Origin: a virus | Length of the DNA: 59,485 nt | Strand: one strand, 5' to 3' | IMG/VR virus record: IMGVR_UViG_3300000838_000001 | Shown: positions 1 through 50,972 of the stretch, in pieces | Position numbering within the stretch: position 1 is the stretch's first letter | Layout of the letters: each line of letters opens with the position of its first letter | Translations under genes and position numbers: made by a program | The notes under the pieces: model-generated | Told to the model about the DNA's origin: nothing | The model's database searches: none | What the model saw: only the letters and a program-made list of their open reading frames with translations

Positions 1-300
1 GGTAATTGTCCCACTTGCTATTTGTAAAGCAGTTATAGTTCCTGTAGCTATTTCATTAGCAGTAATAGTTCCTGTTTCTATTTCATTAGAAGTAATAGTT
101 CCTGTTTTTATTTCATTAGCGGTAATTGTCCCACTTGCTATTTGTAAAGCAGTTATAGTTCCTGTAGCTATTTCATTAGCAGTAATAGTTCCTGTTTCTA
201 TTTCATTAGAAGTAATAGTTCCTGTAGCTATTTGTAAAGCTGTAATTGAACCAGCAAGTATTTCTCTAGCAGTAATTGTTCCAGCTCTAATTTTACCACC
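1..300 (-). repeat. 30-nt periodic tandem repeat inside the Tal gene (decapeptide repeats)
   Basis: Units encode TGTITA[NL][EQ]I[AKE] on the minus strand. 1-105 is identical to 121-225. The array continues at 59372-59485. Confidence 0.9.
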
Positions 301-1989
301 ATCAATTTCAACGGTATCTCCCCAACTCCAGTCTTCCATGATATCTTGAACATCATCAACTTGTGATTGTGCATTAGCAAGGTTGGAATTAGTTGCATCT
401 AAGGCTTCTTTTAAGTCATCTAAATTATCATTTGTTATATCTAAGTCATCTTGTAAATCTTCAAGATTACTGTTTGTGATACCAAGTTCATTAGAAAGAT
501 TATCTAAAGCTTCTTGATTATCAGCTAAATCATTTTGTAAATCCTCAATATTTTGAGTATTAGTATCTAAATCATCTTGTAAAATATCTAGGTCATTAAG
601 AATATTATTAACTTGTGCCGATATTAATTCACCTGTCATATCCCCAACTGCTAGAGTCCAATTAGTACCATCAAATCTCCACATTTCAAATAATTCACCA
701 TTCATTTTATACCACAAGTCATTTTCTCTAGGGTTTTCTGGGACATTATTTCCATAATAAATGGTATTTTTCCCATCTGCTGTTTGTAAAGTATGGTTAA
801 GATTATCACCTAAATCATTAATAATATTGTTAAGATTATTGTTATCATTTATAAAGCTTCCTGTAAAGTTATTTAACTCAGTTTCTAAAGTTATTTGATT
901 ATAACTTTGTAAAATAGGATTGTAAGTATAACTTCTCATTCTAGCATTTATTTCAAAATTATCTTCTTCATGTATTACAGTTACATAATCCCATATACCA
1001 ATATTTTCTAAAACTTGAAAGTCTTTATACTCAATAGTATCTCTTAAATCTACAAAACTAACTGAGTAACTAGCCGTAGGAATATCCACTTTATTTATGG
1101 AGTATTCGTCCTCAGCTCTTTGTAACAGCATTGCTCTAGCTTGTGTTAATGTAACAGCATCAGGGTCATCATCTTGTACATTAGGGGTTCCAAAAGCTTT
1201 TATATCCTCATATTTAAATACTCTATGTATAGGATTAATGTAGTTATTTATTAAAGGCGAATTAACAAAAGCTCCATTAATATTTTGTGCTGGTGTATCA
1301 ACTAAAAATATTCCATCAAATCCTTGAGGTAAAATCCTAGTAACAACACTTGAATAATCTATTTGTCCTTGATATCCAACAAGGTTTTTTTTATGTCTTA
1401 TTTGGACACCGTAATCAGCTCCTATAGCTTTATTTATAATAATATTAAAATTATCCCTAAGAAGTTCTCCACCCCATCTTGAAATAAACGTATTCTTAGA
1501 ATCACCCATAATTGCATCTACACCATTTTTACGAATAATCCTAGCACTAGCATTTTCATCTGAGGAATCGCTACCATCACTTGATGAAGAACCTATATCA
1601 GAACTTGCTGTAAAATTATGTGGGGTTACCATTCCATTAAGTATTGTATTTAATGCCTGCTGACCATTCATGTTATAAGGGTATATATCCATAACCATGT
1701 TATCTAATAAATCATAAAATATATGGTAAGCTTTTACATTAATGATTCCCATACTAGGGTTAAGTTCTTTTACCCTAAATAATTGTAAACCATTTGGTGT
1801 AAAGCACTTTATAAGTGCATCACCAATGATGTAAGATGACAATTTTCCACCTAATGGATATGTAAAACTAGCTGTATATTCTCCGTTAAATTCCTCAAAT
1901 ACTTCAATATCAATTAATCTATTATCTAACAATCCAAGTCCATTATGTGTAAAGTCTGTCTCATCTGGTTTGTAAATAGTTATTGACAT
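1..1989 (-). CDS. Tail-associated protein (Tal / baseplate hub type), N-terminal ~663 codons; frame stays open to nt 1 and continues at 59485
   Basis: ATG at 1989 lies one nt after the Dit stop. No stop in frame down to nt 1. N-terminus MSITIYKPDETDFTHNGLGLLDN is typical of siphophage Tal / minor structural proteins. Sits after TMP and Dit. Confidence 0.8.
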   Translation of the reverse strand, partial: MSITIYKPDETDFTHNGLGLLDNRLIDIEVFEEFNGEYTASFTYPLGGKLSSYIIGDALIKCFTPNGLQLFRVKELNPSMGIINVKAYHIFYDLLDNMVMDIYPYNMNGQQALNTILNGMVTPHNFTASSDIGSSSSDGSDSSDENASARIIRKNGVDAIMGDSKNTFISRWGGELLRDNFNIIINKAIGADYGVQIRHKKNLVGYQGQIDYSSVVTRILPQGFDGIFLVDTPAQNINGAFVNSPLINNYINPIHRVFKYEDIKAFGTPNVQDDDPDAVTLTQARAMLLQRAEDEYSINKVDIPTASYSVSFVDLRDTIEYKDFQVLENIGIWDYVTVIHEEDNFEINARMRSYTYNPILQSYNQITLETELNNFTGSFINDNNNLNNIINDLGDNLNHTLQTADGKNTIYYGNNVPENPRENDLWYKMNGELFEMWRFDGTNWTLAVGDMTGELISAQVNNILNDLDILQDDLDTNTQNIEDLQNDLADNQEALDNLSNELGITNSNLEDLQDDLDITNDNLDDLKEALDATNSNLANAQSQVDDVQDIMEDWSWGDTVEIDGGKIRAGTITAREILAGSITALQIATGTITSNEIETGTITANEIATGTITALQIASGTITANEIKTGTITSNEIETGTITANEIATGTITALQIASGTIT

Positions 1990-1990
1990 T

Positions 1991-2692
1991 TTATAACCAC
2001 CTCCAATTTGGAGAAATAGTTATTCCAGAAATACTACTACTAAATGAAATAATATTATCACCAACTTCTAATATAGGAAAACTACCTTTCATATAATTAT
2101 TCATATTAATATTAGTAAAGTAAGCATCTTTAATTGTACTATTAATAGTGATTTCATTAGTTGGACTAGTCATTAATTCAATAATATTTCCATTCCATGT
2201 TATAGTTGAATTAGCTGTATACTCTACGGTAATAATAGGTAAAGATTTATAGGTTGCATTATTTGTAATAGTTAGATTTCCAGTTAAATTAGAAATATCC
2301 TGAACATTACTTTCATATGTAAATGGATCACATTCAAAATTTACTGTAAAATATCCATAAGTAATATATTCATTTTGAATATCACCTATTGTAATCCTTT
2401 TTACTTTATAAAACATGTCTAACTCATCTGTAAATACCAGTTTATTAGCATTCATAAATAAACCTTTTAGAGTTCTTAATAAAGCTTTTATGTTAGTTCC
2501 TCTTTTTATTACATTAAAATTGATTGAGAAAGATATATCTGAGTAACCTATTTCTTGTGTATAAGAACCGTCCATTCCCTCAACTTCAATAACTTTATAT
2601 CTCATTTGTGGAGTTGGAATATTAGGACGTTCTGGAGTAGATAATTTATACTCTTGAAATAAATCAATATCGTTTATTAAAATACTTAACAT
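1991..2692 (-). CDS. Distal tail protein (Dit)
   Basis: 233 aa between TMP and Tal. N-terminal MLSILINDIDL..ERPNIPTP..VEGMDGSY resembles the siphophage tail family (Dit). Genes are tightly abutted. Confidence 0.75.
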   Translation of the reverse strand: MLSILINDIDLFQEYKLSTPERPNIPTPQMRYKVIEVEGMDGSYTQEIGYSDISFSINFNVIKRGTNIKALLRTLKGLFMNANKLVFTDELDMFYKVKRITIGDIQNEYITYGYFTVNFECDPFTYESNVQDISNLTGNLTITNNATYKSLPIITVEYTANSTITWNGNIIELMTSPTNEITINSTIKDAYFTNINMNNYMKGSFPILEVGDNIISFSSSISGITISPNWRWL

Positions 2693-2694
2693 AT

Positions 2695-5622
2695 CTACAC
2701 CATCCCTCTTCCTAATTTATTAGATTGCATCCTATTAAATAAAGCTCTATCCATATCCTTAGCTAACATTCCAGCTATTTTAGAACGTTCTGAACTATTT
2801 TCTAGTGATAGGCCTTTTGCTTCAATAGATACATTAACATTATAATAATTATTTCCAGTGCCATTTTCATTTGTAGATTCACCTAAGTTTCTAACAGAAG
2901 AATTAGCAAAAGTTCTTAATGCACCTATATCTGGACTTAATAAACCTGAGGCATTTCTACCTAATCCAGAACCTTGATAACTAAATGTTCCTAAAGGGTT
3001 ATTTTCATTATTTAAATCTGTATCAATTGTTATAGAACGTCCTGCTAATTTATTCCATGCATCACCAATTTCACCAACTAATTGACCAATTCTTGATTCT
3101 TGAAATTTCCTAACTAGTTCATCTATTTTTCTTTTAAATTTATCTACAATACCACTTACCCAATCAAATTTTGCACCTAACTTTTCTAGTTGGTCTATAC
3201 CATATATTTTAATTTTATCTTTAAAGTAGTTAAATTTGTCTACTATTTTTTGTATAACCTCTATAGTAGCCTTAATTTTATCCATAACATATTCTTTAAT
3301 TTTATTTCCAAATTCTCTAAATCTATCAATAACTTCCATTATCTTAGTTTTAGTATTTTCTAATATTGATAAGAATTTTTCTACTATAATTTTAATAAGG
3401 TCTGCTATAGCTCCCCAAACTGTTTTAGCAATGTCATACCACCAATTAAATGCAATTATTAATTTATCAATAATAAAACTTGCACAGAGTTTTCCAATTT
3501 CAATAAATAAACTTATTTTATCCATTATAGATTCAAAAATAGTAATTACACTATCTCTAATCGTTTCATAAAGATTTGTAAATGTTTCTTTTACCTTATC
3601 AATAATCCCACTAAAGAACTCAAATACTGGAGTTAATTTTTCCATAATATACGCCCAAATATCTTGGAAAATACTTATTACTAGTTCAACTCTTTCTTTT
3701 ACTTGGTTAAATCTATCAATTAAATATTGTTTAATAGCATCAGCTACAATAGCAAATACTTCTCTAATTACATCCAATTTTTTATTAAAATCTTCAAATA
3801 CTGAAATAACTTTATTTTTAATTATTTCATATACTTCTTTAAGTCTTTCAATAACTGGTTTAATATTTTCTACTAACCATTTAAACGATTCAACTAGAAT
3901 GATTGTAATAATTTTAGCGGTATTTACGAATAATACACTAAGGAAATTCATTAAGTTACTTAGAAATTCAAATACTGGTGCTAGTTTATTTTTAATTACT
4001 TCAATAATTGTTTGAAATCCATCTCTAAGGTTTTGTAGTTTTTCTTTTGCACTATCAATAGCACCATTAAACTTATCTGAGATATTATTAGAAAAGTTTT
4101 GGAATGATTCTTTTACCTTATTTGCTTTATCCTTAACTTTATCAAACCATTCACCCATTTTTTGTAAAGCATTGGAAATAAAATCTTTACATATTTTTAA
4201 TCCCTCTTTAAATGAAGCCCATAATTTATCTACAGCTTCTTTAAAGGATTCATTAGTTTTATAAAGATTCATAAAGTACTTTACTAATAATGCTATAGCT
4301 GTAATAGCAATTTTAATCCATCCCATTTTACCTAGTCCAGCTAATTTTTCAAATGTACCTGTAGTAGCTTTTAAAATATCATCTAGTTTACCAAATGATT
4401 CTTTAAATTTATTAACAACACTTTTAGCTAAAAGGAATTTCATTATAACTGGAATTGCTGGAAGTATTAAATGCATATTATCACTAAGAAATCCAAATAC
4501 TTTTGCTAATCCATCCATAGCAGATTGAAACATTTTAGCAACATCATCTCTGTAAAGGTCCTTCCACATCTCTTGTGCTACAGCAACTGTTGTCCAAAAT
4601 AAATCATTAATATTTGCTAATGTTGGTGCAATAGAATCAAAGAATTTTAGGAAAGGATTATCAGAACCACTAAAGGCATCTCCTGTAAATAAGTCTTTAC
4701 CTAGTGCTTGTAAATTAAGTATTTCTTCACCAGCGTTAACTAAAGGCATCATTAATCTAGCTATTGCATCAAAGAATGGTTCTACAATTTGTCCTGAAAA
4801 TATTTGTTTAAGGTCTTCTAACTTACCTTTTAAACCTTGCATAGTACCGGCCATTTCATCTCCAGCACCTTTATATAATTCCATTCCATCAATCAATAAT
4901 TTAATAGCTTCATCAGATGATATACCCGCTTTTGCTTGTCCTCGTAATGCAATAACTTGGTCATTTAATTGTTTAGTAGTTGGTTCTAATACACCTTTTG
5001 CTTTAAGCTGTGACCTAGCCATTAATTGCCATCCCTCAATACCTTGGTTAGCTAACTGATTCATTTCCTCAGCACTAAGTTTCCCTTTACCAGCAATCTG
5101 AGATATAGCGTTTGCTACACCCATCATAGCATTAGTATCCCCAGCTTTTCCCATAGCTGATAATGCATCATCAATAGCATTAACATTTTTAGCTAGTTGA
5201 TCACCGCCAATTCCTAGACGTTCAAATACTTTAGTTAATTCATCCGTACCTTTGTAATCAAAGTTGGTTTGAAGTGCTAGTTGCTGTATTTCAGCTTGTT
5301 TCTTTCTAGCTTCTTCTAAACTTCCAGTCATAGTTGTCCAATATGCTAAAGAATTTTCTAATGTTTGGTTATAATCAACACCTGTTTTAAAAATATCCTT
5401 ACCAACGTCTATCATTGCACTTCCAGCTTTTTTAGCAAAATCTTTAACTGCTTTTCCTGAAAATCCCCAAATATCAGCTAAATCTTTACCAATATCTTTC
5501 CATGACTTATCTATTTGTTCTGTTGTTTTATTTGATTCATTTAAAACTCTTCTAAACATCTTTTCTACATCATCAATGTTCAAAAAGACGGTTAACTCTA
5601 AATTTTCTGTAGTTGATATAAT
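2695..5622 (-). CDS. Tail tape measure protein
   Basis: About 975 codons of helical, low-complexity protein directly after the chaperone genes. SD AGGAGGTGA (5626-5634) is followed by in-frame ATT at 5622. The track start TTG 5583 has no SD. Confidence 0.85.
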   Translation of the reverse strand: MISTTENLELTVFLNIDDVEKMFRRVLNESNKTTEQIDKSWKDIGKDLADIWGFSGKAVKDFAKKAGSAMIDVGKDIFKTGVDYNQTLENSLAYWTTMTGSLEEARKKQAEIQQLALQTNFDYKGTDELTKVFERLGIGGDQLAKNVNAIDDALSAMGKAGDTNAMMGVANAISQIAGKGKLSAEEMNQLANQGIEGWQLMARSQLKAKGVLEPTTKQLNDQVIALRGQAKAGISSDEAIKLLIDGMELYKGAGDEMAGTMQGLKGKLEDLKQIFSGQIVEPFFDAIARLMMPLVNAGEEILNLQALGKDLFTGDAFSGSDNPFLKFFDSIAPTLANINDLFWTTVAVAQEMWKDLYRDDVAKMFQSAMDGLAKVFGFLSDNMHLILPAIPVIMKFLLAKSVVNKFKESFGKLDDILKATTGTFEKLAGLGKMGWIKIAITAIALLVKYFMNLYKTNESFKEAVDKLWASFKEGLKICKDFISNALQKMGEWFDKVKDKANKVKESFQNFSNNISDKFNGAIDSAKEKLQNLRDGFQTIIEVIKNKLAPVFEFLSNLMNFLSVLFVNTAKIITIILVESFKWLVENIKPVIERLKEVYEIIKNKVISVFEDFNKKLDVIREVFAIVADAIKQYLIDRFNQVKERVELVISIFQDIWAYIMEKLTPVFEFFSGIIDKVKETFTNLYETIRDSVITIFESIMDKISLFIEIGKLCASFIIDKLIIAFNWWYDIAKTVWGAIADLIKIIVEKFLSILENTKTKIMEVIDRFREFGNKIKEYVMDKIKATIEVIQKIVDKFNYFKDKIKIYGIDQLEKLGAKFDWVSGIVDKFKRKIDELVRKFQESRIGQLVGEIGDAWNKLAGRSITIDTDLNNENNPLGTFSYQGSGLGRNASGLLSPDIGALRTFANSSVRNLGESTNENGTGNNYYNVNVSIEAKGLSLENSSERSKIAGMLAKDMDRALFNRMQSNKLGRGMV

Positions 5623-5638
5623 ATTTCACCTCCTACTT

Positions 5639-5998
5639 TTATCTTTTAGTAATTTGTGTTAAATAACTTGAACCTTTATTTCTTAAATATTTTAAAGCAA
5701 CATCTCCTCCAGCTTCCATAAAGTGGGTACCCTCTACCCAATGACCTCGACCTCTTGCGGATATATACCCAAAGTTTTGATAATGTGCATAATATATTCC
5801 TGTAGAAATCTTGCCATAAATATTGTTTCCTTTAACAACTGCTGGTACTGATATAATACTTTGATATAAAGCTCCTGTATCAATTCTAGCTTCTTCTTTA
5901 GCTACTTCTCTACCTCTAAATGTAGCTTCATTAACAAGCTCTTTTCCATAAATTAAGGCATTTCTTTTAAATACTTCTGGTTTAATATTATGATTCAT
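5639..5998 (-). CDS. HK97 gp10-family tail-completion-like protein
   Basis: Motifs IDTGALYQSI, YYAHYQNFG and HFMEAGGD resemble the HK97 gp10 family. Its position between chaperone and TMP is unusual. Confidence 0.6.
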   Translation of the reverse strand: MNHNIKPEVFKRNALIYGKELVNEATFRGREVAKEEARIDTGALYQSIISVPAVVKGNNIYGKISTGIYYAHYQNFGYISARGRGHWVEGTHFMEAGGDVALKYLRNKGSSYLTQITKR

Positions 5999-6056
5999 AG
6001 TTGCACCACTACGTCTTGCTATCTAAATCACCTCTTTTAAAAGGCTTAATAAAAAT

Positions 6057-6284
6057 CTAGTAATTTCCTTTATCTAAAGCCCTTAATTGTGCATCATAAT
6101 CTTTATTAGCTTTCCAGACACTAATTTCACACCAATGTAATAAGTCTGTTTTATCAATTTCATTTAATGTCCAATTTACATCAATCCTAGACATATAAAA
6201 ATCATTTATAAAGTCTAAAAGGGAATACGGAACATTATTTTCCATACTCCCTTTTATATTTACATTGGTGTTAATTAGTTTTTT
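6057..6284 (-). CDS. Tail assembly chaperone T-extension, expressed as a G-T fusion by -1 frameshift
   Basis: The -1 frame relative to 6275-6586 is stop-free from the slippery site A_AAA_AAC to the stop at 6057. This is the canonical position between the tail tube and TMP genes. Confidence 0.75.
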   Translation of the reverse strand, partial: KKLINTNVNIKGSMENNVPYSLLDFINDFYMSRIDVNWTLNEIDKTDLLHWCEISVWKANKDYDAQLRALDKGNY

Positions 6285-6586
6285 TGTTTATCTAAAACAC
6301 CACTAATACGATTCATAGGTGAATTTAATGCTTCACCTAAAATAGGTAATAAATCCCCTATATCAATTCCATTCCAAAACTCCTCTACTGTAAACCCATT
6401 ATTGTAAAGTTTACTAGAAACGAACTCAATAGTTTTATCTAATGTTTCTACTTTCATATCATTCTGTAATTCTTCAGATAAAATAATAGCTTCTTTAAAT
6501 ACTAGTGCTGGAATAAATGATGGTTGTGTGAACTCTTTCTTTTCATTATTAATTAATAAAGTTAATTTCATAATTGTTTCCTCCAA
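6275..6586 (-). CDS. Tail assembly chaperone (G-like)
   Basis: 103 aa immediately downstream of the major tail protein. Ends in the slippery run. Confidence 0.75.
   Translation of the reverse strand: MEETIMKLTLLINNEKKEFTQPSFIPALVFKEAIILSEELQNDMKVETLDKTIEFVSSKLYNNGFTVEEFWNGIDIGDLLPILGEALNSPMNRISGVLDKQKN
6278..6284 (-). other. -1 programmed ribosomal frameshift slippery heptamer A_AAA_AAC
   Basis: Minus strand reads CAA AAA AAC TAA. A shift of -1 gives AAA AAA CTA ATT, which runs into the 62-aa ORF frame. Confidence 0.7.
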
Positions 6587-6604: not shown

Positions 6605-7192
6605 TTAAGGTGTAATATTTTCATCAATTAATGGTTCTTGAACCTCTGTAAACCATTCAGTAATTTGAACAACGGCATCACCCTCAGCAACTCTTTCATC
6701 TACTTGATATTCGAATACTTGGTCACTTAAACGAGGGATAAAGCTTGCTGTTAAAGATGTTGATTGGAATGTTACAGTATCTTCTTTTGTATTATTTGCT
6801 TCTTCTGGTAATGCAAATTGTCCACGGTATAAAACTTTATATCGGAATAAACCATCTGCCATTAAACGCTTATACAATAAAGCTACTCTAGGTGCTTGGT
6901 CAATAGCTGTTTTAACAGTTGCTCCATCAATATAAGCATGACCTAATACTTCTGCTTCAATCTCTGGTTCAATACCTGTTAAAGTAACCCCAACTTCAAT
7001 AGCACCTAAACTAGTGTAAGTTTCAATAACTCTATTATCTCCATATTGAGAAGCACTCTCAGTAGATGGAGTAATAGTTAACTCTTGTACATATCCTAAA
7101 CGTTTTGGTGATTCATAAGTTGTTGTTGTTTCATCCTCAGTTAGGATAAGTGCATAAAATAACTCTTGCACCCCAATTACAGTTGTACTCAT
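6605..7192 (-). CDS. Major tail (tube) protein
   Basis: 195 aa. Its position in the operon and the N-terminal MSTTVIGVQELFYALI..D...Y..P pattern resemble phi13-family major tail proteins. Confidence 0.75.
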   Translation of the reverse strand: MSTTVIGVQELFYALILTEDETTTTYESPKRLGYVQELTITPSTESASQYGDNRVIETYTSLGAIEVGVTLTGIEPEIEAEVLGHAYIDGATVKTAIDQAPRVALLYKRLMADGLFRYKVLYRGQFALPEEANNTKEDTVTFQSTSLTASFIPRLSDQVFEYQVDERVAEGDAVVQITEWFTEVQEPLIDENITP

Positions 7193-7219: not shown

Positions 7220-7618
7220 TTAATTATTTGGTTCTTCCCCGGGATTTTCGTCATCATCAATAGGATTAACTACTTCCCAATAATCGACCATAAACTGTGC
7301 ATTAATAGAATTATTAACATCAAATATATTAAAAGATTCTGATAAATAAAATCTATTAACTATTCTAAAACTCATTAAAGCATTTGCTAAATATTCTTTT
7401 GCTATATTTTTATCTAAAGTAGTTTGTAAAAGAGAAACTTGTATAAAAGGAATTGTTCTTCTTACTACATGAGATAATGGAATAGGATTTTCATCTAAAA
7501 CAGTTATGATTAAATCATTTGGAAGAGCATTTTGAATTACATTTCCAATAATAATTCTAGAATCTGGAAACCATATTTTAAGATTTGATACAATTTGGTC
7601 TTCTAGTAATTTGTTAAT
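7220..7618 (-). CDS. Head-tail joining / tail terminator-like protein (ATT start; absent from the ORF track)
   Basis: 132 stop-free codons. AAGAGGTGAG SD lies 6 nt upstream of ATT 7618. An in-frame TAA lies two codons upstream. It fills the only hole in the structural operon. Confidence 0.7.
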   Translation of the reverse strand: MNKLLEDQIVSNLKIWFPDSRIIIGNVIQNALPNDLIITVLDENPIPLSHVVRRTIPFIQVSLLQTTLDKNIAKEYLANALMSFRIVNRFYLSESFNIFDVNNSINAQFMVDYWEVVNPIDDDENPGEEPNN

Positions 7619-7645
7619 CTTTTACTCACCTCTTTACACTAAATT

Positions 7646-8041
7646 TTAAGCATATCTAACTTCTTGAACATGCATTACTTGATGACATGGATATACAACT
7701 GGTTCTCCAGCTGTTACAGTAACGTATCTATAATTAGTTGTTATAATAAATTCATCACCTTGTTTTAGAAAAATAGCTGGACTACAAAATACTCTAGGTT
7801 GTGTTCTAACTCTATTAGCTGAACCAGATTCATTATTATAATAACTATTTTCCATAACACTATTTAAGTTGGGTCTTGTTCCAACTGAATAAGCACAAGG
7901 TATTCCCTCATAAATAACTTGTCTCACCATTTTTATTGAACCATTTGTTTGAACTGATTCTACCATTCTATAAATATCCATTACATCAAAATAAGTTTGT
8001 TCTATTTCCATAGGTGCATAATTCTGTAAAATTCTAGCCAT
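7646..8041 (-). CDS. Head closure / head-tail adaptor protein (putative)
   Basis: 131 aa in the connector position between the capsid and tail genes. Tightly coupled to its neighbours. Confidence 0.6.
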   Translation of the reverse strand: MARILQNYAPMEIEQTYFDVMDIYRMVESVQTNGSIKMVRQVIYEGIPCAYSVGTRPNLNSVMENSYYNNESGSANRVRTQPRVFCSPAIFLKQGDEFIITTNYRYVTVTAGEPVVYPCHQVMHVQEVRYA

Positions 8042-8043
8042 AC

Positions 8044-8502
8044 TTATAACATCCTAAGTTTTTTATATTTTCGTAAAATCCATTCGTAATCACCAAATAA
8101 ATCAACACGTCCATCAGATGATGTTGGAGTCCTTTGTTTCTCATATTGTACGGTATAGTCACCACGTGTAAGTCTTGTCAAATCGCTATGTTGTCCTGTT
8201 AAATCAGAATATCTGTCATAGTTAACAATAGACATTTCAGCAATAATGTCATTAAGAATTTCTGGTGGTTCATATCCTAAATATGTTTTTACTTTTGTAT
8301 AAATAGATTTTACAGCTCTATTTATATTTTTCCTTACGTTTTCATCATCTGTATCTAAACCAGCATCATTGGCTATCGCTATTGCAAGTAAAGTAATAGT
8401 CACTGTTACTGGAGTTGGTCTACGTTCTGATATATTATTTTCTAAAATACCATCATTTACTATGACATTATTTTGTCTAGGTGGGTAAATAAACATTGAC
8501 AT
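8044..8502 (-). CDS. Head-tail connector protein (putative)
   Basis: 152 aa, first gene after the capsid gene. Call rests on synteny. Confidence 0.6.
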   Translation of the reverse strand: MSMFIYPPRQNNVIVNDGILENNISERRPTPVTVTITLLAIAIANDAGLDTDDENVRKNINRAVKSIYTKVKTYLGYEPPEILNDIIAEMSIVNYDRYSDLTGQHSDLTRLTRGDYTVQYEKQRTPTSSDGRVDLFGDYEWILRKYKKLRML

Positions 8503-19902: not shown

Positions 19903-20190
19903 ATGAGTATTGATTCAAGAGAATTTGAAATAGAGTATACAATAACTTATAACTATAAATATTTAAAAGTAATAGAAGCAGATAGTGAAGAAGAAGCTAG
20001 ACAAAAGTTCTTAGATGATGTTAGTAACTATATTGCAAAAGGGGAAGTAACTATTTATAGTGTAAAAGAAGCTAATGAAATTTGTTACGATTGCTGTTTA
20101 TCATTTCCATCAGATGAAATTTTATCAACTGGATTATGTGAAAGTTGTACTAAAGAGTACGATGAAATGGAGGATGATTATTGTGATTAA
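19903..20190 (+). CDS. Hypothetical Cys-rich protein
   Basis: SD GGAGGAAA. CYDCC...CESC pattern suggests a zinc ribbon. Confidence 0.6.
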   Translation: MSIDSREFEIEYTITYNYKYLKVIEADSEEEARQKFLDDVSNYIAKGEVTIYSVKEANEICYDCCLSFPSDEILSTGLCESCTKEYDEMEDDYCD

Positions 20191-20572
20191 TGATTATTTT
20201 TATAACGAAGCAGTAAAAGAAGCTGAAGATAGGTATACTTCAGAAATTAATTTTGAAACACTTATATATGAATTTATAACTGAAGATATGATTAATAATT
20301 TAGGAGAAAAAGAAGGGCTTATTATTTCATCTCTAAATAATGATGTAAGGATTAGAAGAAGCTTAATAATAGAAGGTAAAACAGAAAATATTACTATAAG
20401 TGAATGTAATGAAGATTTTATATTAGAAATAATGGAAGAAGGTGGAACTGCTTTTAGATTACCTTTAATGACTGGTAATCCATCTAGAATACTTTTATCT
20501 TTAAAAAGTTGGGTTTCTCATTCACCTACTTTATATAATCTTGAGAGATTTTTACTTAAAGGGAGACAATAA
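20183..20572 (+). CDS. Hypothetical protein
   Basis: GTG 20183 lies 8 nt after GGAGGA and overlaps the previous stop. The longer track ORF from 20075 overlaps the upstream gene. Confidence 0.55.
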   Translation: MINDYFYNEAVKEAEDRYTSEINFETLIYEFITEDMINNLGEKEGLIISSLNNDVRIRRSLIIEGKTENITISECNEDFILEIMEEGGTAFRLPLMTGNPSRILLSLKSWVSHSPTLYNLERFLLKGRQ

Positions 20573-36661: not shown

Positions 36662-36832
36662 TTATTTTAAAAATCCTCTATCTAAATTTGATTGAATTAT
36701 TTTTATAACTTCTCTTGTTCCCTTTTTATCAAGTACTATTCTATAAAGTTCTATATCGTATTCATTGTAATGAACTAAAACGGTACTATTATCTTCTACA
36801 CCAACCCATACACAGCCACTTTTATTATCCAT
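36662..36832 (-). CDS. Small hypothetical protein (56 aa, not in the ORF track)
   Basis: ATG 36832 overlaps the polymerase stop. SD GGAGAG lies 7 nt upstream. Followed by a 12-bp stem-loop. Confidence 0.45.
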   Translation of the reverse strand: MDNKSGCVWVGVEDNSTVLVHYNEYDIELYRIVLDKKGTREVIKIIQSNLDRGFLK

Positions 36833-37550
36833 TTGTAACTCTCCATTCTGGAAAAATATTTTTAATGTTTTTTAACTTACCCCAATTATTACTAAGCTCT
36901 ATATCAGTTTTAGAGGGAACATCTAATGGTAAAGTATTTATCATAATATCTTCTAATCTCCTCATTTCAGCAAAAGTAACATCTTTAGGAACTTTTACTA
37001 ATACTTCATCATGAATACTAGAAATTAAAGCAAATTTTCTAGTTGAATTAGAGTAAGTATTACACCATTTATCAAGTGCTATCATTACAAGTTTCGTTTG
37101 AATACTTGCTGAACCTTGAATGATAGCGTTTGCTTTACCTTGCCTTTCAGCTCTTCCATAAAGTTTCCAGTCACTAGAAGTAATATTTGGTAAACGTCTT
37201 TTACGTCCATATAACATCTCAACATAACCGTTTTCTTTACAAAATTTAAGATTGTTATCCATCCATTGCTTTACATTAGTAAAATTATTAAAGAACTCTT
37301 CTACTAATAATTCTGCTTCTTCTTTATCAATTCCTAAATCTTTAGCTAATGTAAATGTAGCTTTTCCATAAAGTAATGATAATACAATAGTTTTAGCTCT
37401 TGTTCTATAAACTGTTCCATCACCACATTCACTTACATCTTTATTGAACATTTTACTAGCAACCATTGTATAGAAATCTTGTTTATTTTTATAAACATTT
37501 ATTAGAAAAGGGTCTTTAGTAAAATGTGCTAATAGTATTAATTCTTGTGC
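36825..37550 (-). CDS. polA: Family A DNA polymerase, exon 2
   Basis: AQELILLAH completes motif A. Also RTRAKTIVLSLLYG (motif B) and SIHDEVLV (motif C). Confidence 0.85.
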   Translation of the reverse strand, partial: AQELILLAHFTKDPFLINVYKNKQDFYTMVASKMFNKDVSECGDGTVYRTRAKTIVLSLLYGKATFTLAKDLGIDKEEAELLVEEFFNNFTNVKQWMDNNLKFCKENGYVEMLYGRKRRLPNITSSDWKLYGRAERQGKANAIIQGSASIQTKLVMIALDKWCNTYSNSTRKFALISSIHDEVLVKVPKDVTFAEMRRLEDIMINTLPLDVPSKTDIELSNNWGKLKNIKNIFPEWRVTNG

Positions 37551-38329
37551 CATTTACGTTTTAAGGTTCGTTAAACCTTCTGCTATTTCTAACAGTATCG
37601 GACTATATCTTGTAAGTAAACTTACCCTCCAGTTTCGATAACACTTGTTATCTACTCTACTAGGTTATAAGCATAAGATATTTCACAACATCCTATGTTT
37701 ATCCGTTCGATAGTCTCTACACATAAGTTAGTAACTCCATTTGTAGCCTCCAGCTAATGGTCTTTTCCCTAAACAAACCTTAGATATATTTTGTGCTTGA
37801 ACTCCTGTTTCTTTAAACGCAACTTTTGGGGTGGGATATTCTGCTATAAAATTTCCTTGTTTATCGTATTGATAAACTTTTTTAGCTTTGCTTCCTAATT
37901 GACCTAAAACTTTATATTTATGAATATTATTTTTAGAAACGGTACAATATTCTAAATTAGAATAATGATTATTATCTTTATTTCCGTCTATATGATTTAT
38001 ACAAAGTTCTATTTTAGGGTCTTCTAAAAATGTTTCAGCAACAATTCTATGGACTCTATACATTTTTGAATTTAAGTCTCGTTTTAAAGGAACTCTAAGG
38101 TAACCATCATGAGTTTTAAAAGGTTTCATAAGACGATTATTTTGATTAAAAATATTTCCATATTCATCTACCTTATAATATTTAGATTCTTGACCATCAA
38201 TTTTTACAAATTTTAATATAATAATTCCCCCTAAAATATTAGAGAGTTACTAACCCTTGCTCGGTATTGCCTTATCTAATAGACTTAGGTTTCACCGACT
38301 TAAAGAGGTTTTACTTCTCCACAAATTTT
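37551..38329 (-). mobile_element. Group I self-splicing intron carrying a homing endonuclease ORF
   Basis: P1 pairs exon UUCUCU with intron GGAGAA, giving U-G at the 5' splice site. Terminal G at 37551. Conserved AAGAUAUAGUC pairs with upstream GACUAU (P7). An 11-bp helix (38244-38254 with 37727-37737) encloses the ORF. Confidence 0.85.
37728..38222 (-). CDS. HNH homing endonuclease (intron-encoded)
   Basis: INHIDGNKDNNHYSNLEY is an HNH motif. The frame is open 32 codons upstream of ATG 38129, back to GGGGGA-ATT-ATT-ATA, so the start is probably non-ATG. Confidence 0.8.
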   Translation of the reverse strand: MILKFVKIDGQESKYYKVDEYGNIFNQNNRLMKPFKTHDGYLRVPLKRDLNSKMYRVHRIVAETFLEDPKIELCINHIDGNKDNNHYSNLEYCTVSKNNIHKYKVLGQLGSKAKKVYQYDKQGNFIAEYPTPKVAFKETGVQAQNISKVCLGKRPLAGGYKWSY

Positions 38330-39733
38330 AGAGAAATCTAGTCCAGCAATTAAACTTTCATCATCTGTTTTATACATTAGTCTAGCTTTTTTACTTTGTT
38401 GCTGAAAGTTAGGCTTACTAGAACTTAACCTACCTGTTACCGTACCAGCTTGATTGTAATTAGGATGAATTTTACCATCACTTTGAATAAAATCTTCTAC
38501 CTTTTCGACAAATCCTGTTAAGAATTTAAATAAAGTTTTATATTCTAAAAGTAATTTTATAATTGGAAAATCATCCTCATAATTTTTTAATACCTCAGCA
38601 GATGTTCCAGAAACTTTAGCACCGATATTATTTAAAGCATTTTTAAGCTGAACTGGACTATTTAAATTAATTTCACCTAAAGTTCCATACAATTCATTTT
38701 CCATATCTTTTAATTTAATTTTTATTTCACTTTCTTGTTTACGTACTTCATCTAAATCTACACAAAACCCCTCACGTTCCATTCTTGCAATAACTTGTAA
38801 TAAAGGTTGTTCAACTTTTAAATAATAATTTATAAGTCCTGTTCCATTTAAATGTTTTAAATAAAATTCATATAATTTATAAGTCAAATGAGTATCTTTA
38901 CAAGCATAATGTAAAGCATATTTTAATTCTACTTCGGCAAATTTACCATTAGCTCCGAACAATTCTGAGTATAAGTCTGCTTCAAATTTTAGATATTTTG
39001 GTGCTAAATCTTTAAGTTTATAACTAGGCTCATTTTCATTTAAAATATGTGCAATAACACTTGTACAATGTACTTTACCTCTAACTTCCATAATTCCAGA
39101 AAAGTGTAAAATATGTAAATCAAATACAGCGTTATGAAAAACCTTATCACAAGGTAATTGACAAATTAATTCTAAAAACCATAGTCCAGAATGCATATCA
39201 CAATTTACATTAATTCCTTGTTCTAGTTCGTGTCTTAAAGGAACATACCAATGCTTATCAGCAATAGGTGCTGTAATTGAATATCCTACTATAACGTCTT
39301 TATAAACATTTAATCCAGTTGTTTCAGTATCAATAGCTATTACTAATTCTTTTTTAACTATTTCATACATTTCTTGTAACTGTGCTTCATTTTGTGCTAG
39401 ATAGTAGTTGACAGGAGTTGTCAATACAATTTCATTAAGCCTATCTTTACGTTTTAATTTCAGTAACCTAGAATGAATTTTTAACGCTTCTGTTTTAGAA
39501 AAGTTTTTATTGTAATCATTAACATCTCGACCTATAATACCTTTTTCCATAGCATTATAAACTTCTCTTAATTTAACTTTTTCAGCATCTGTATTTTTAC
39601 GTGTTCCTATTAGTTTCCATGATTCATCCATTGTTAATAAAGGCTTTTTAGTAGCTTTTGATTTGGTAATTTTTTTATTTTTTTCTTTAAGGTCTTTAAT
39701 TAAATCATCTTCATTTTTTATTTTATTTAACAA
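38330..39733 (-). CDS. polA: Family A DNA polymerase, exon 1 (3'-5' exonuclease plus the N-terminal part of the polymerase domain)
   Basis: Exo motifs AIDTETTGL, NAVFDLHIL and YACKDT. Ends within motif A at ..GLDFS. The track ORF reads 9 codons into the intron. Confidence 0.85.
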
Positions 39734-43730: not shown

Positions 43731-43991
43731 TTAATTACCCTCTATTTTACTAAAAATTAAATCACCATTTTTCTTAAATTCTTCCCATAGTTCTTTATTC
43801 AAAAATATCCCATAATATTCATTAAACTCATCTAAACAGCAAATATATAAAGAAAGAGCAGTAGTAAAACTTTTATTAATCATAATACGATTGTTATTAA
43901 AATCTCTCATTGATATTAACCAATTAGAATCCAAACTGTTCAATCTCCTTTTGAATATCTGATAAAGTGGGTTCATATATAATTCCAGCAT
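43731..43991 (-). CDS. Hypothetical protein (start uncertain)
   Basis: Overlaps the helicase 3' end by 68 nt if it starts at 43991. Confidence 0.45.
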   Translation of the reverse strand: MLELYMNPLYQIFKRRLNSLDSNWLISMRDFNNNRIMINKSFTTALSLYICCLDEFNEYYGIFLNKELWEEFKKNGDLIFSKIEGN

Positions 43992-45267
43992 AAGGTAAAT
44001 AAATACCCTCTATAAAATCTCCCTCTCCACCATTTCTTCCTTTATTTAACTCAATTCTGAATTTTGATAAATTTGTATCAATTCCTATTAAGTTAGTGCA
44101 ATCTTCAAGTATTGATTTGGTCTTTTTTACTTCACTTCTCTTAGGAACTCTTATTTCACGATTTCCATCTGAATCTTTATCATCTATAATTTCATCAGCT
44201 TGCGTTATAATATGAAAAACTGTTTTAGTATTTCCACAAATTCTTCTTAGTCTTTTAGAAGTTGATGCGACATCTCCACCAGCTACTTTACTTGTATTTG
44301 CTTCATAATCCATTAAATAAATTGGGTCAATAAAAACTACATCAGCATTTACTTGTTTTATATCAGATAATAGTTCATCACAAGAACGTAAATTAAAATC
44401 TTCATCGTCATTTGCTCTAATAATAATTTTACCTTTAATTTGTTGATTTAACCTTTGTAAGAATCCTTTTAATTCTTCTTCTTCAATGTCATTTAAATCA
44501 CCTTTAAGTAATTTATTAGTTTCAAATCCTTTTAATTGTTCTGAAATAGTTTCAGTAATTGAACGTTCTCTAAATTTTAAATAAGCAATCATACGACAAA
44601 GTATTTCATATAGACTCATTTCAAGTGACCAAATTAAAACAGTTGCACCTTGTAAAGCACTATGACAACCCTCTACACAAACACTTAACATACTTTTACC
44701 TCTACCACTTCTACCATAATGAGCATACATATTAGATGAAAAATAATCTGGCATACTAGAAAAAGCACTACTCCAAACTTTTAATGATTCACCATTTTTA
44801 CGTCTGAAATATTCATCATAAAATTTTCCATATTCATCTGTTAAACTTGTACCAACTTTTGTTCTATAATCTACTTTATCAACTATTTTATTAGATTCTT
44901 TATTAAACCACTCTACCCATTCTTTTCCATCAATTTCATTAAAATAATCTGAACCATTATTGTTTAGTAAATTTTGTATTTTAGTCTTTATATTATAACT
45001 TTTAAGTTGTTTTGTTAGATATTCATAGGAATCAGTTATATTGTAACGCATTGTAAAATCATCTATAGCAACCATTACTGTATCAGCTGAGGGCATATTA
45101 TTTTTATTAGTTATTGCGTATTCTGTAATAAAATCGTAAACATCCTTTTCAGTTTTTGTTACAAATAATTCTTTTGTTATAGAATTTTTTATTAATTGGT
45201 CATACTCATTATTTTCTATAACTTTACTTAAAATACTTTCTCCAAAATAAATTACATTAGAAATAAT
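43924..45267 (-). CDS. DnaB-family replicative helicase
   Basis: Walker A GRSGRGKS, Walker B VVFIDPIYLM. 57 stop-free codons upstream of ATG 45096 reach SD GTAGGTGAG followed by ATT ATT. Confidence 0.8.
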   Translation of the reverse strand: MISNVIYFGESILSKVIENNEYDQLIKNSITKELFVTKTEKDVYDFITEYAITNKNNMPSADTVMVAIDDFTMRYNITDSYEYLTKQLKSYNIKTKIQNLLNNNGSDYFNEIDGKEWVEWFNKESNKIVDKVDYRTKVGTSLTDEYGKFYDEYFRRKNGESLKVWSSAFSSMPDYFSSNMYAHYGRSGRGKSMLSVCVEGCHSALQGATVLIWSLEMSLYEILCRMIAYLKFRERSITETISEQLKGFETNKLLKGDLNDIEEEELKGFLQRLNQQIKGKIIIRANDDEDFNLRSCDELLSDIKQVNADVVFIDPIYLMDYEANTSKVAGGDVASTSKRLRRICGNTKTVFHIITQADEIIDDKDSDGNREIRVPKRSEVKKTKSILEDCTNLIGIDTNLSKFRIELNKGRNGGEGDFIEGIYLPYAGIIYEPTLSDIQKEIEQFGF

Positions 45268-45287
45268 CTCACCTACTTTACAATATA

Positions 45288-46013
45288 TTATAGTTCTTTT
45301 CTATAGCTTTTGTTAACCTCTGAAAATGATATAATAGCTGTCTTATCACGAACCCTATCATAAATTCTTTTATCATATATTTTAATTAAATTATCTATTG
45401 TAAAGTTTGATGTATATATACTAGTTAATTTATTTACACTTCTGTGGTTTATAACCTTATGCAAATCCCCTCTAAAGGCCTCTGTGCATTCTCTTACACC
45501 TAAATCATCAAAGCATACTAGAATAGCCTTAGAAGCTAATTCTAGTCGTTTATAGTACTCTTTACTAGCTTCTAGTGCTACACCTTTATCGATATTACTT
45601 CTATTAAACTTATTATATATTTCCTGTAATTCAGTTACATCTAAAAAATAACTTGGCAAATCAATAATCTTTTCACCATTTTTATATTTTGTAAGGAAAA
45701 AGAAAACATTAAATTCATTTAATATAGCACTAGCTGTAAATGTCTTTCCAACACCAGTTATTTCACTATATAAATATAAATTTTTCATTCCCTCATCTGT
45801 AAATACTTTATGGAATGATTTTACATATGATTTAAATAAATCACTTTGATAATTAACATCTGAAATCAGTTTATCAGAATAAATAAAAGGTATTTTTGAG
45901 ATATTAGTATAACCACTTTCACCATTTATTCCATGAAACATTAAGCATAGAGTTTTAGGGTTATGTGGATTTAAATTTGTTGTTAGGTATTTTTTACAAA
46001 TTAAGCAACTCAT
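45288..46013 (-). CDS. DnaC/DnaI-like AAA+ helicase loader
   Basis: GVGKTF Walker A, VCFDDLG Walker B, YTSN sensor. N-terminal CLICKK. Confidence 0.75.
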   Translation of the reverse strand: MSCLICKKYLTTNLNPHNPKTLCLMFHGINGESGYTNISKIPFIYSDKLISDVNYQSDLFKSYVKSFHKVFTDEGMKNLYLYSEITGVGKTFTASAILNEFNVFFFLTKYKNGEKIIDLPSYFLDVTELQEIYNKFNRSNIDKGVALEASKEYYKRLELASKAILVCFDDLGVRECTEAFRGDLHKVINHRSVNKLTSIYTSNFTIDNLIKIYDKRIYDRVRDKTAIISFSEVNKSYRKEL

Positions 46014-50204: not shown

Positions 50205-50339
50205 CATTTAAAAACAATTTATTAAACCTTTTAGTAATAAGAGGTTTTAGGTTATTTTAATTTTTTTTACATATATTTGTCAATTTTTATTAATTTTAAC
50301 CTTATTAGAGTAAAATATTGAGTATAATTTAATAAAGAG

Positions 50340-50972
50340 GTGGTTAATATTAATACTTTAGAACATGCAAATAAAACGGTTATTAGAACTAAAGCTGAAC
50401 GTCATGAGTATTTAGACAAAGAAAAACTCCATCAAATATTTGAAACAAATGAAGGAGAAACTATTGAATTATGGGTTTCTTATCAAGACTTATATCTTAT
50501 GGCGTACAATTTTTCTAAAGGTTACTTACCTTATTTTTATAAAAACTATATGCCTAAATTTAATAAAACTGATATTGAAGATTTCTTAATTGATGAATCT
50601 ATTAAACTTGTGCCAATGTTTTTAAATAGCCCCAATAGAGATAACTTTAATAAATTTTTAGGTTATTGGTTAAAAATTAAATTTAAAAATATATTTTTAA
50701 GAAGAAAAATAGATACAATAACTACTAATATAAAAGATGGAGATTATATTATAGATTCAAATTATATTAGTGCTAATTCTATAATAAATACAATTAATTT
50801 TAATGAACTTTTAGAGATATTAACATTACGTGAAAGAGCCATTTTAAATGCTCTGTCGCAAGGAAATAACGTTTCTGATATAGCAAATAATGTAGGTATA
50901 AGTAGACCAACTGTTTATAAAGATTTTAGAAGTATTAACCAAAAAATCACTAATTTAGTTTCAGTAAAATAA
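50340..50972 (+). CDS. Sigma-70 family sigma factor (probable late-gene regulator)
   Basis: Region 4 HTH LTLRERAILNALSQGNNVSDIANNVGISRPTVYKDF. The true start may be ATT 50349, because the listed GTG lies inside the SD AAAGAGGTGG. Confidence 0.75.
   Translation: MVNINTLEHANKTVIRTKAERHEYLDKEKLHQIFETNEGETIELWVSYQDLYLMAYNFSKGYLPYFYKNYMPKFNKTDIEDFLIDESIKLVPMFLNSPNRDNFNKFLGYWLKIKFKNIFLRRKIDTITTNIKDGDYIIDSNYISANSIINTINFNELLEILTLRERAILNALSQGNNVSDIANNVGISRPTVYKDFRSINQKITNLVSVK

Follow-up and report, generated by a model that had tools for sequence, protein, structure and literature searches.

Phage Genome and Its Start Sites

The window, by which we mean the whole stretch of DNA analyzed here, is the complete virus record IMGVR_UViG_3300000838_000001, with 59,485 bp, a GC content of 26.7%, and approximately 90 genes. 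Its Shine-Dalgarno sequences (SDs) are Firmicute-type sequences that complement the AGGAGGTGA tail. Identity to the nearest phages is only 40-47% at the protein level, and the hosts of these phages are Enterococcus, Clostridium, and Bacillus. Searches of phage, plasmid, IMG/VR, and GTDB collections found no nucleotide-level relatives, megablast with phages and plasmids giving nothing useful. Peptide scans of IMG/VR with the tail terminator and the large terminase (terL) gave matches of 40% identity or less only, and a GTDB genome scan with terL gave no match.

A single large tail gene on the minus strand spans the ends of the record (window 1-2019 and 58493-59485, 673 and 330 codons), so the record is circularly permuted. 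The ORF desert at 1-1990 is only apparent, being the 673-codon part of this gene that runs over the record ends. In the middle of the gene a 9-residue unit (GTITANEI- and GTITALQI-like) is repeated many times in tandem, and 45 nt of this repeat are common to both ends of the record.

Nearly all genes start with ATG, occasionally GTG or TTG, behind an SD of -6 to -14 kcal/mol. SD energies come from folding the 16S 3' tail with the 18 nt that precede a candidate start. An earlier note on this DNA had proposed that six genes start at ATT behind a strong SD; all six SD-ATT sites are present in the sequence, and every coordinate it gave is correct. At least five genes of this phage, which probably infects a low-GC bacterium, have ATT behind very strong SDs at their beginning, and these codons are probably their initiation sites.

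Tail-Terminator Gene

A 132-codon frame on the minus strand (7220..7618) occupies the 453 nt that separate the head-closure from the major-tail genes; it begins at ATT 7618-7616 and ends with the stop codon TAA 7222-7220. Its neighbors are two adaptor/head-closure genes (PHROG 132 at 8044-8502 and PHROG 615 at 7646-8041) and the major tail protein gene (PHROG 88 at 6605-7192). The frame opens with TAA 7624-7622, AAG, and then ATT. The SD AAAGAGGTGA (7626..7635, minus strand) has an aligned spacing of 10 nt to the ATT and a duplex energy of -11.7 kcal/mol. The earliest in-frame ATG, GTG, or TTG is ATG 7375 at codon 82; its SD energy is +1.1 kcal/mol, and a start there would leave 51 aa. Readthrough or fusion from the upstream gene into this frame is ruled out because three in-frame TAA codons separate the two.

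Homologues of the product are few. A word-indexed protein search found none, returning the window's own truncated calls only. An exhaustive HMMER search of 1.8 billion representatives returned five distant homologues (P0004-P0008, 115-129 aa), together with the public protein call P0002, which is the 51-aa truncation of the same product. The N-termini of the homologues read M-N-[QES]-[VIL]-[LI]-E-[DL], that of the ATT frame is I-N-K-L-L-E-D, and N2 and E6 are invariant. Conservation thus begins on the ATT, and all five homologues match residue 2 to residue 2. In the IMG/VR relative L001, the only homologue compared at the DNA level, gene order is identical and the terminator starts with TTG behind TAGGTGA.

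An AlphaFold2 model built from the homologue alignment has a pLDDT of 85.3 and a pTM of 0.77, with a helix at residues 3-16 at the N-terminus and a fold that takes up the full protein length. Foldseek matched the model over approximately 130 columns (TM 0.52-0.66) to 8v3t_L (E=2e-6), 2gjv_A (1.6e-5), and 3fz2_C (1.2e-4). The matches are tail terminators: the diffocin collar protein (8v3t_L), a Salmonella protein (2gjv_A), lambda gpU (3fz2), T5 p142, and that of Mu. The model supports identification of the product as a tail terminator (gpU-like). Comparison with Pfam and PHROGs gave no family match at the thresholds used, so the assignment is by fold and position only. Like lambda gpU, T5 p142, and the diffocin and pyocin collar proteins, the product has this predicted fold, a size of approximately 130 aa, and a gene directly upstream of the major tail protein gene. 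It differs from them in having no Pfam or PHROG match and only five distant homologues among the 1.8 billion representatives. The earlier proposal that an ATT-initiated ORF fills the hole in the head-tail operon is supported by homologue N-termini, fold, and gene order, which are concordant.

DnaB-Like Helicase

The helicase gene is on the minus strand (43924..45264, 446 codons read from the second of two adjacent ATT codons). Its beginning has TAGGTGAG followed by ATT 45267 and ATT 45264; the SD TAGGTGA (45275-45269, minus strand) has an energy of -11.0 kcal/mol and a spacing of 7 to ATT 45264. ATG 45096, which is codon 57 or 58, has an SD energy of +1.3 kcal/mol, and a start there would cut off 56 conserved residues. 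Matches in tblastn reach back to query residues 1-8. Eight annotated orthologue starts lie at the position of ATT 45264, 6-10 residues ahead of the conserved LSK[IV][IV]. Four of these are ATG (BC-6, SAP6, EG103P2, and LP-032) and four are GTG (9181, EH802P1, Tripp, and Unity); for BC-6 and 9181 the alignment puts the start precisely at the second ATT. The orthologue N-termini thus support fixing the predicted start at ATT 45264. The upstream ATT-ATT start claimed earlier is borne out and can be narrowed to its second codon.

A promoter-like TTAACA-18-TATAAT (11/12) is located directly 5' of the helicase SD (window 45287-45316, minus strand), where it overlaps the 3' end of the gene before it. 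Transcription from here might give the helicase a separate mRNA with a short leader; shuffled sequences have no fewer promoter-like sites than the region.

Tape Measure, terL, and Sigma-Like Genes

In three further genes, ATT follows a GAGGTGA-type SD of -13 to -16 kcal/mol by 6-8 nt, and a canonical codon that has no SD lies within 3-13 codons. Homology is unable to separate codons 3-13 positions apart in these genes.

The tape measure gene (2695..5622, minus strand, 975 codons, Pfam TMP_3 match) opens with TGA 5628-5626, AAT, and ATT 5622. Its SD AGGAGGTGA (5634-5626) is the genome's strongest at -16.1 kcal/mol, a perfect 9 nt directly after the upstream stop codon. TTG 5583, 13 codons downstream of the ATT, has an energy of -2.4 kcal/mol and no usable SD. 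A word-indexed protein search found no homologue covering the N-terminus of the protein. The ATT site and the SD-less TTG hold as described previously. By SD geometry ATA 5619 is an equally well placed alternative (spacing 9, against 6 for ATT 5622), and either codon may be the start.

The terL gene (12773..14053, minus strand) has ATT 14053 behind the SD AGAGGTGAT (14066-14058, -13.1 kcal/mol, spacing 8). The listed GTG 14062 lies inside this SD, three codons before the ATT, and has an SD energy of +1.3 kcal/mol. The start must be GTG 14062 or ATT 14053, because terL homologues align from residues 1-3 and no further canonical start with an SD occurs until codon 99. That the GTG is embedded in the SD was correctly noted before; the preference for ATT follows from SD geometry, as homology cannot separate the two codons. 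The terS and terL genes are separated by a perfect hairpin of 25 bp (window 14071-14129, minus strand), which ends approximately 5 nt before the terL SD. It has an energy of -28 kcal/mol (z=-8 against shuffles), and the sequence of its 9-nt loop, ACUCCUCCA, complements a GGAGG-type SD. The hairpin might serve as a terminator or an attenuator, bind a protein as a palindrome, or affect terL as an anti-SD element.

The sigma-like/HTH regulator gene (50349..50972, plus strand) has ATT 50349 behind the SD AAAGAGGTGG (50334-50343, -13.4 kcal/mol, spacing 8). The listed GTG 50340 is part of this SD, three codons before the ATT, and has an SD energy of -2.2 kcal/mol. Matches to PHROG 351 (sigma factor) and Pfam GerE are confined to the C-terminal HTH part of the protein, and tblastn with the protein gave no phage match. 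The ATT site described for a sigma factor gene is thus present, its use as the start is argued for by SD geometry, and the sigma and GerE matches are limited to the C-terminal part.

HNH Endonuclease, gp10-Like Gene, and Other Candidate Starts

An HNH homing-endonuclease ORF on the minus strand (37728..38225) has a leader with GGGGGA followed by ATT 38225, ATT 38222, and ATA 38219; ATG 38129 lies 32 codons downstream. SD energy is -9.3 kcal/mol for ATT 38222 and -1.3 kcal/mol for ATG 38129. A start upstream of the ATG is required because, in the ATT-38222 reading, NUMOD4 starts at residue 6 and the homologue alignments at residue 8, whereas the ATG is residue 32. Measured from GGGGG, the two ATT codons have spacings of 1 and 4 nt and ATA 38219 has one of 7 nt, and the leader GGGGGAATTATT is common to the HNH gene and gene 35476, where ATG follows. 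A non-canonical start upstream of ATG 38129, as proposed earlier, is therefore upheld, but spacing and the leader of gene 35476 favor ATA 38219 over ATT, and this best-placed codon is our best guess for the start.

The HNH ORF is carried in an insert of approximately 750 nt that splits a family-A DNA polymerase gene (window 36825-39733, minus strand), the two halves meeting at Pfam profile position 162. The match of Rfam Intron_gpI to this polA insert is sub-threshold (24.8 bits, E=6e-4, 37579-37735).

A seventh candidate, outside the six of the earlier note, is the HK97-gp10-like tail-completion gene (PHROG 5; 5639..6022, minus strand). Its frame opens exactly at ATA 6022 after TAG, behind AAAAGAGGTGAT, with an SD of -13.4 kcal/mol at spacing 8; the alternative ATG 5998 has -5.3 kcal/mol. 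From these values, ATA 6022 is slightly favored as the predicted start. A word-indexed protein search found no gp10-like homologue, only the window's own truncated call. It is unusual for such a gene to lie, as here, after the chaperone pair and before the tape measure gene. Gene 6275-6586 ends with a slippery heptamer, A AAA AAC (window 6275-6290, minus strand), immediately ahead of the TAA. The -1 reading frame is open from 6287 to 6057, which is the classic G/GT tail-assembly-chaperone frameshift; the second chaperone ORF has ATG 6245 with a poorly spaced SD.

Two other sites were rejected. A minus-strand ORF of 105 codons with an orphan SD at 20525 was judged spurious; it has no family match and lies antisense to a gene that starts at GTG behind a -16.2 kcal/mol SD. 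The start of this gene (20075-20572, plus strand) is probably GTG 20183 (SD GGAGGATGA, -16.2 kcal/mol) and not the listed ATG 20075 (-1.9 kcal/mol). ATA 58160 was dropped as a near-cognate start since a canonical ATG directly follows.

SD Strength, Spacing, and Unbiased Scan

SD energies at the five ATT sites range from -11.0 to -16.1 kcal/mol (median -13.1), compared to a median of -9.35 for 60 canonical starts (Mann-Whitney P=0.0026). The competing canonical codons of the five genes have +1.3 to -2.4 kcal/mol. Aligned spacing at the ATT sites is 10, 6, 7, 8, and 8 nt, and canonical starts (n=60) have 4-11 nt with a peak at 7. A GGTG-extended SD occurs at six of the seven near-cognate sites compared to 12 of the 60 canonical starts (Fisher P=0.001). 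Strong SDs helped to find the sites, so both the SD-strength and the GGTG associations are partly circular. No canonical start can give the whole conserved protein for the terminator (codon 82), the helicase (codon 57), or the HNH ORF (codon 32).

An unbiased scan in which ATT was not asked for used a contiguous match of weight >=9 to the anti-SD (aSD) complement and a frame open for >=80 codons at spacing 4-12, opening within 25 codons upstream. It returned 23 canonical-start sites and seven orphans in the window. The orphans are the sigma-like, helicase, terL, terminator, tape measure, and gp10-like genes and the one antisense ORF. An in-frame ATT lies at spacing 6-10 in five of the seven, and the gp10-like orphan has ATA at spacing 8. 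Given that ATT makes up 5.5-8.1% of codons, the chance of ATT in at least five of seven orphan windows is 5e-4 to 3e-3. The identical scan of a control, Clostridium phage phi8074-B1, gave 34 canonical sites and three orphans, none with ATT or ATA. In L001 it gave 10 canonical sites and three orphans, one with ATA.

Discussion

Initiation at AUU is rare in bacteria. In Escherichia coli, infC (encoding IF3) and pcnB start at AUU, and IF3 discriminates against this codon. AUU limits the output of a protein needed at a low level in infC and pcnB, and the phage genes can be read in the same way. The infC start is autoregulatory because IF3 senses the codon at which its own translation begins; the phage shows no sign of such feedback, and no initiation factor was recognised in its genome, where small ORFs were covered in part. 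AUU output in E. coli is approximately 4-8-fold below that of AUG, and the infC junction uses both reinitiation and de novo initiation (PMC3592434). Non-AUG mRNAs have greater sensitivity to nutrient state and ppGpp (PMC5499595). Start-site mapping in Staphylococcus aureus identified only four non-canonical starts genome-wide, cvfC1 (AUU), ccpN, infC, and citZ (AUA), all behind extended SDs and with approximately 10-30% of AUG output (PMC13009471). This system and the phage are alike in their Firmicute-type translation, AUU and AUA codons, long SD towards the start, and normal spacing (PMC13009471). They differ in that S. aureus has four sites per bacterial genome, whereas the phage, known here from sequence, would have 5-7 in approximately 90 genes, a far higher density, distributed over structural, packaging, replication, and regulatory modules. 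A literature search for ATT start codons in phages gave matches that mostly concerned att sites or tRNAs. AUU and AUA initiation as such is already known, and the phage adds a dense new example. What sets it apart is the density of these predicted starts (5-7 in approximately 90 genes) and the dominance of ATT. Also particular to the phage are the virion and packaging genes within the putative set and a terminator family that appears to be almost without sequence relatives.

The most probable explanation (roughly 0.8 for the explanation as a whole) is ordinary initiator-tRNA initiation at near-cognate codons, with AUU used in five genes and AUA probably in one or two more. Long SD pairings of the GAGGUGA type that extend towards the start codon, at normal spacing, would make such initiation possible. 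The sequences show a lack of canonical starts, a fitting SD geometry, and, for two of the genes, agreement with homologue N-termini; AUU would then be the codon used, its use would lower output, and that lowering may have been selected. No tRNA genes were found in the genome with ARAGORN or Rfam, which rules out a private phage initiator tRNA; the host initiator tRNA must therefore read the ATT and ATA codons as near-cognates. In the systems measured, which are other organisms, near-cognate output is approximately 1/10 to 1/4 of that of AUG. ATT being a weak start, the proteins are probably made in small amounts. Such starts could hold down products that are needed in few copies or are harmful in excess, namely the tail terminator, tape measure, large terminase, replicative helicase, sigma-like regulator, and homing endonuclease, whose genes would be throttled within operons whose neighbors (capsid and tail tube) are made in bulk. 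A contribution may come from coupling to the preceding cistron, which has its stop codon 16-32 nt away for four genes. Orthologues often have weak canonical starts (TTG for the L001 terminator, GTG for four of eight helicases), and from these and the low copy number of the products we infer translational throttling. Portal and adaptor proteins are also low-copy and use ATG, so the copy-number rule is loose.

Several alternatives bear on which codon is used and how ribosomes reach it. Near-cognate initiation might be confined to three or four genes, with terL and the sigma-like gene starting at their listed GTG or the tape measure gene at TTG 5583, and ATT being a common isoleucine codon that happens to lie nearby. 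GTG 14062 and GTG 50340 are in frame just upstream of the ATT, ATT is frequent in this genome, and homology lacks the power to choose between the listed starts and ATT. We nevertheless consider this decidedly unlikely: the GTG and TTG codons in question lack an upstream SD (+1.3, -2.2, and -2.4 kcal/mol), while nearly all other genes have one; the aSD complement GGAGGTGA contains GTG by necessity; and the word AGAGGTGA also precedes the two ATT starts that are fixed or nearly fixed by homology. Sequencing or assembly errors, or a defective element with mutated starts and dead or truncated genes, would agree with the public protein calls P0002, P0011, and P0012 (51, 962, and 119 aa), which are truncated forms. 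The calls are truncated, however, because callers allow only ATG, GTG, and TTG. Five or six independent third-base errors all giving T, in ORFs otherwise intact and full-length compared to their homologues, are implausible, and truncated products would lose half of the terminator fold and the helicase N-domain, which makes artefact or decay highly improbable. Termination-reinitiation, in which ribosomes from the upstream cistron take the ATT, might act in place of de novo initiation. An upstream stop codon precedes the starts of the terminator, tape measure, helicase, and gp10-like genes by 16-32 nt, and at the E. coli infC-type junction about half of the output comes by reinitiation (PMC3592434). 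The sigma-like gene, however, is first in its unit, terL follows the 25-bp hairpin and lies 85 nt past terS, and pure coupling would need no strong SDs. Reinitiation as the main route is therefore unlikely, and it would complement near-cognate initiation behind extended SDs rather than replace it.

A serious rival concerns why near-cognate codons are there. The ATT and ATA starts may be real but no regulatory device, with G-to-T and G-to-A pressure eroding ATG, strong SDs compensating, genes for products required at low levels tolerating the change, and drift being neutral or slightly deleterious. The base composition is extreme (27% GC), a single third-position change turns ATG into ATT or ATA, and the affected genes are low-demand ones with SDs of above-average strength, as compensation predicts. 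Mutation pressure alone, on the other hand, should favor the transition product ATA, yet ATT leads by approximately 5 to 1-2. Orthologues in less AT-rich phages also have weak starts (TTG, GTG), which points to selection for low output but is not decisive. Overall, neutral erosion is a possible though not favored account of the codons. At the other extreme, the AUU starts could be a coordinated set, with one throttled gene per module (packaging, neck/tail, replication, regulation, and selfish endonuclease) and an output that tracks host initiation fidelity (IF3, ppGpp, growth state), which would couple virion production and replication to host physiology. We regard coordination of this kind as very doubtful for the phage.

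Annotation that allows only ATG, GTG, and TTG leaves an essential tail terminator missing or truncated and shortens the helicase, tape measure, and HNH proteins. The link with GAGGUGA-type SDs supports the view that a long SD may license weak start codons in low-GC Gram-positives. If the set is selected, it would be an easy means of setting the stoichiometry of low-copy proteins for virions and replication within long operons. In L001, a 158-codon frame (1319-1795, plus strand) has ATA 1337 behind an SD of -17.2 kcal/mol, with the first canonical codon, TTG 1391, at -6.0 kcal/mol; by this comparison, ATA 1337 is likely another near-cognate start.
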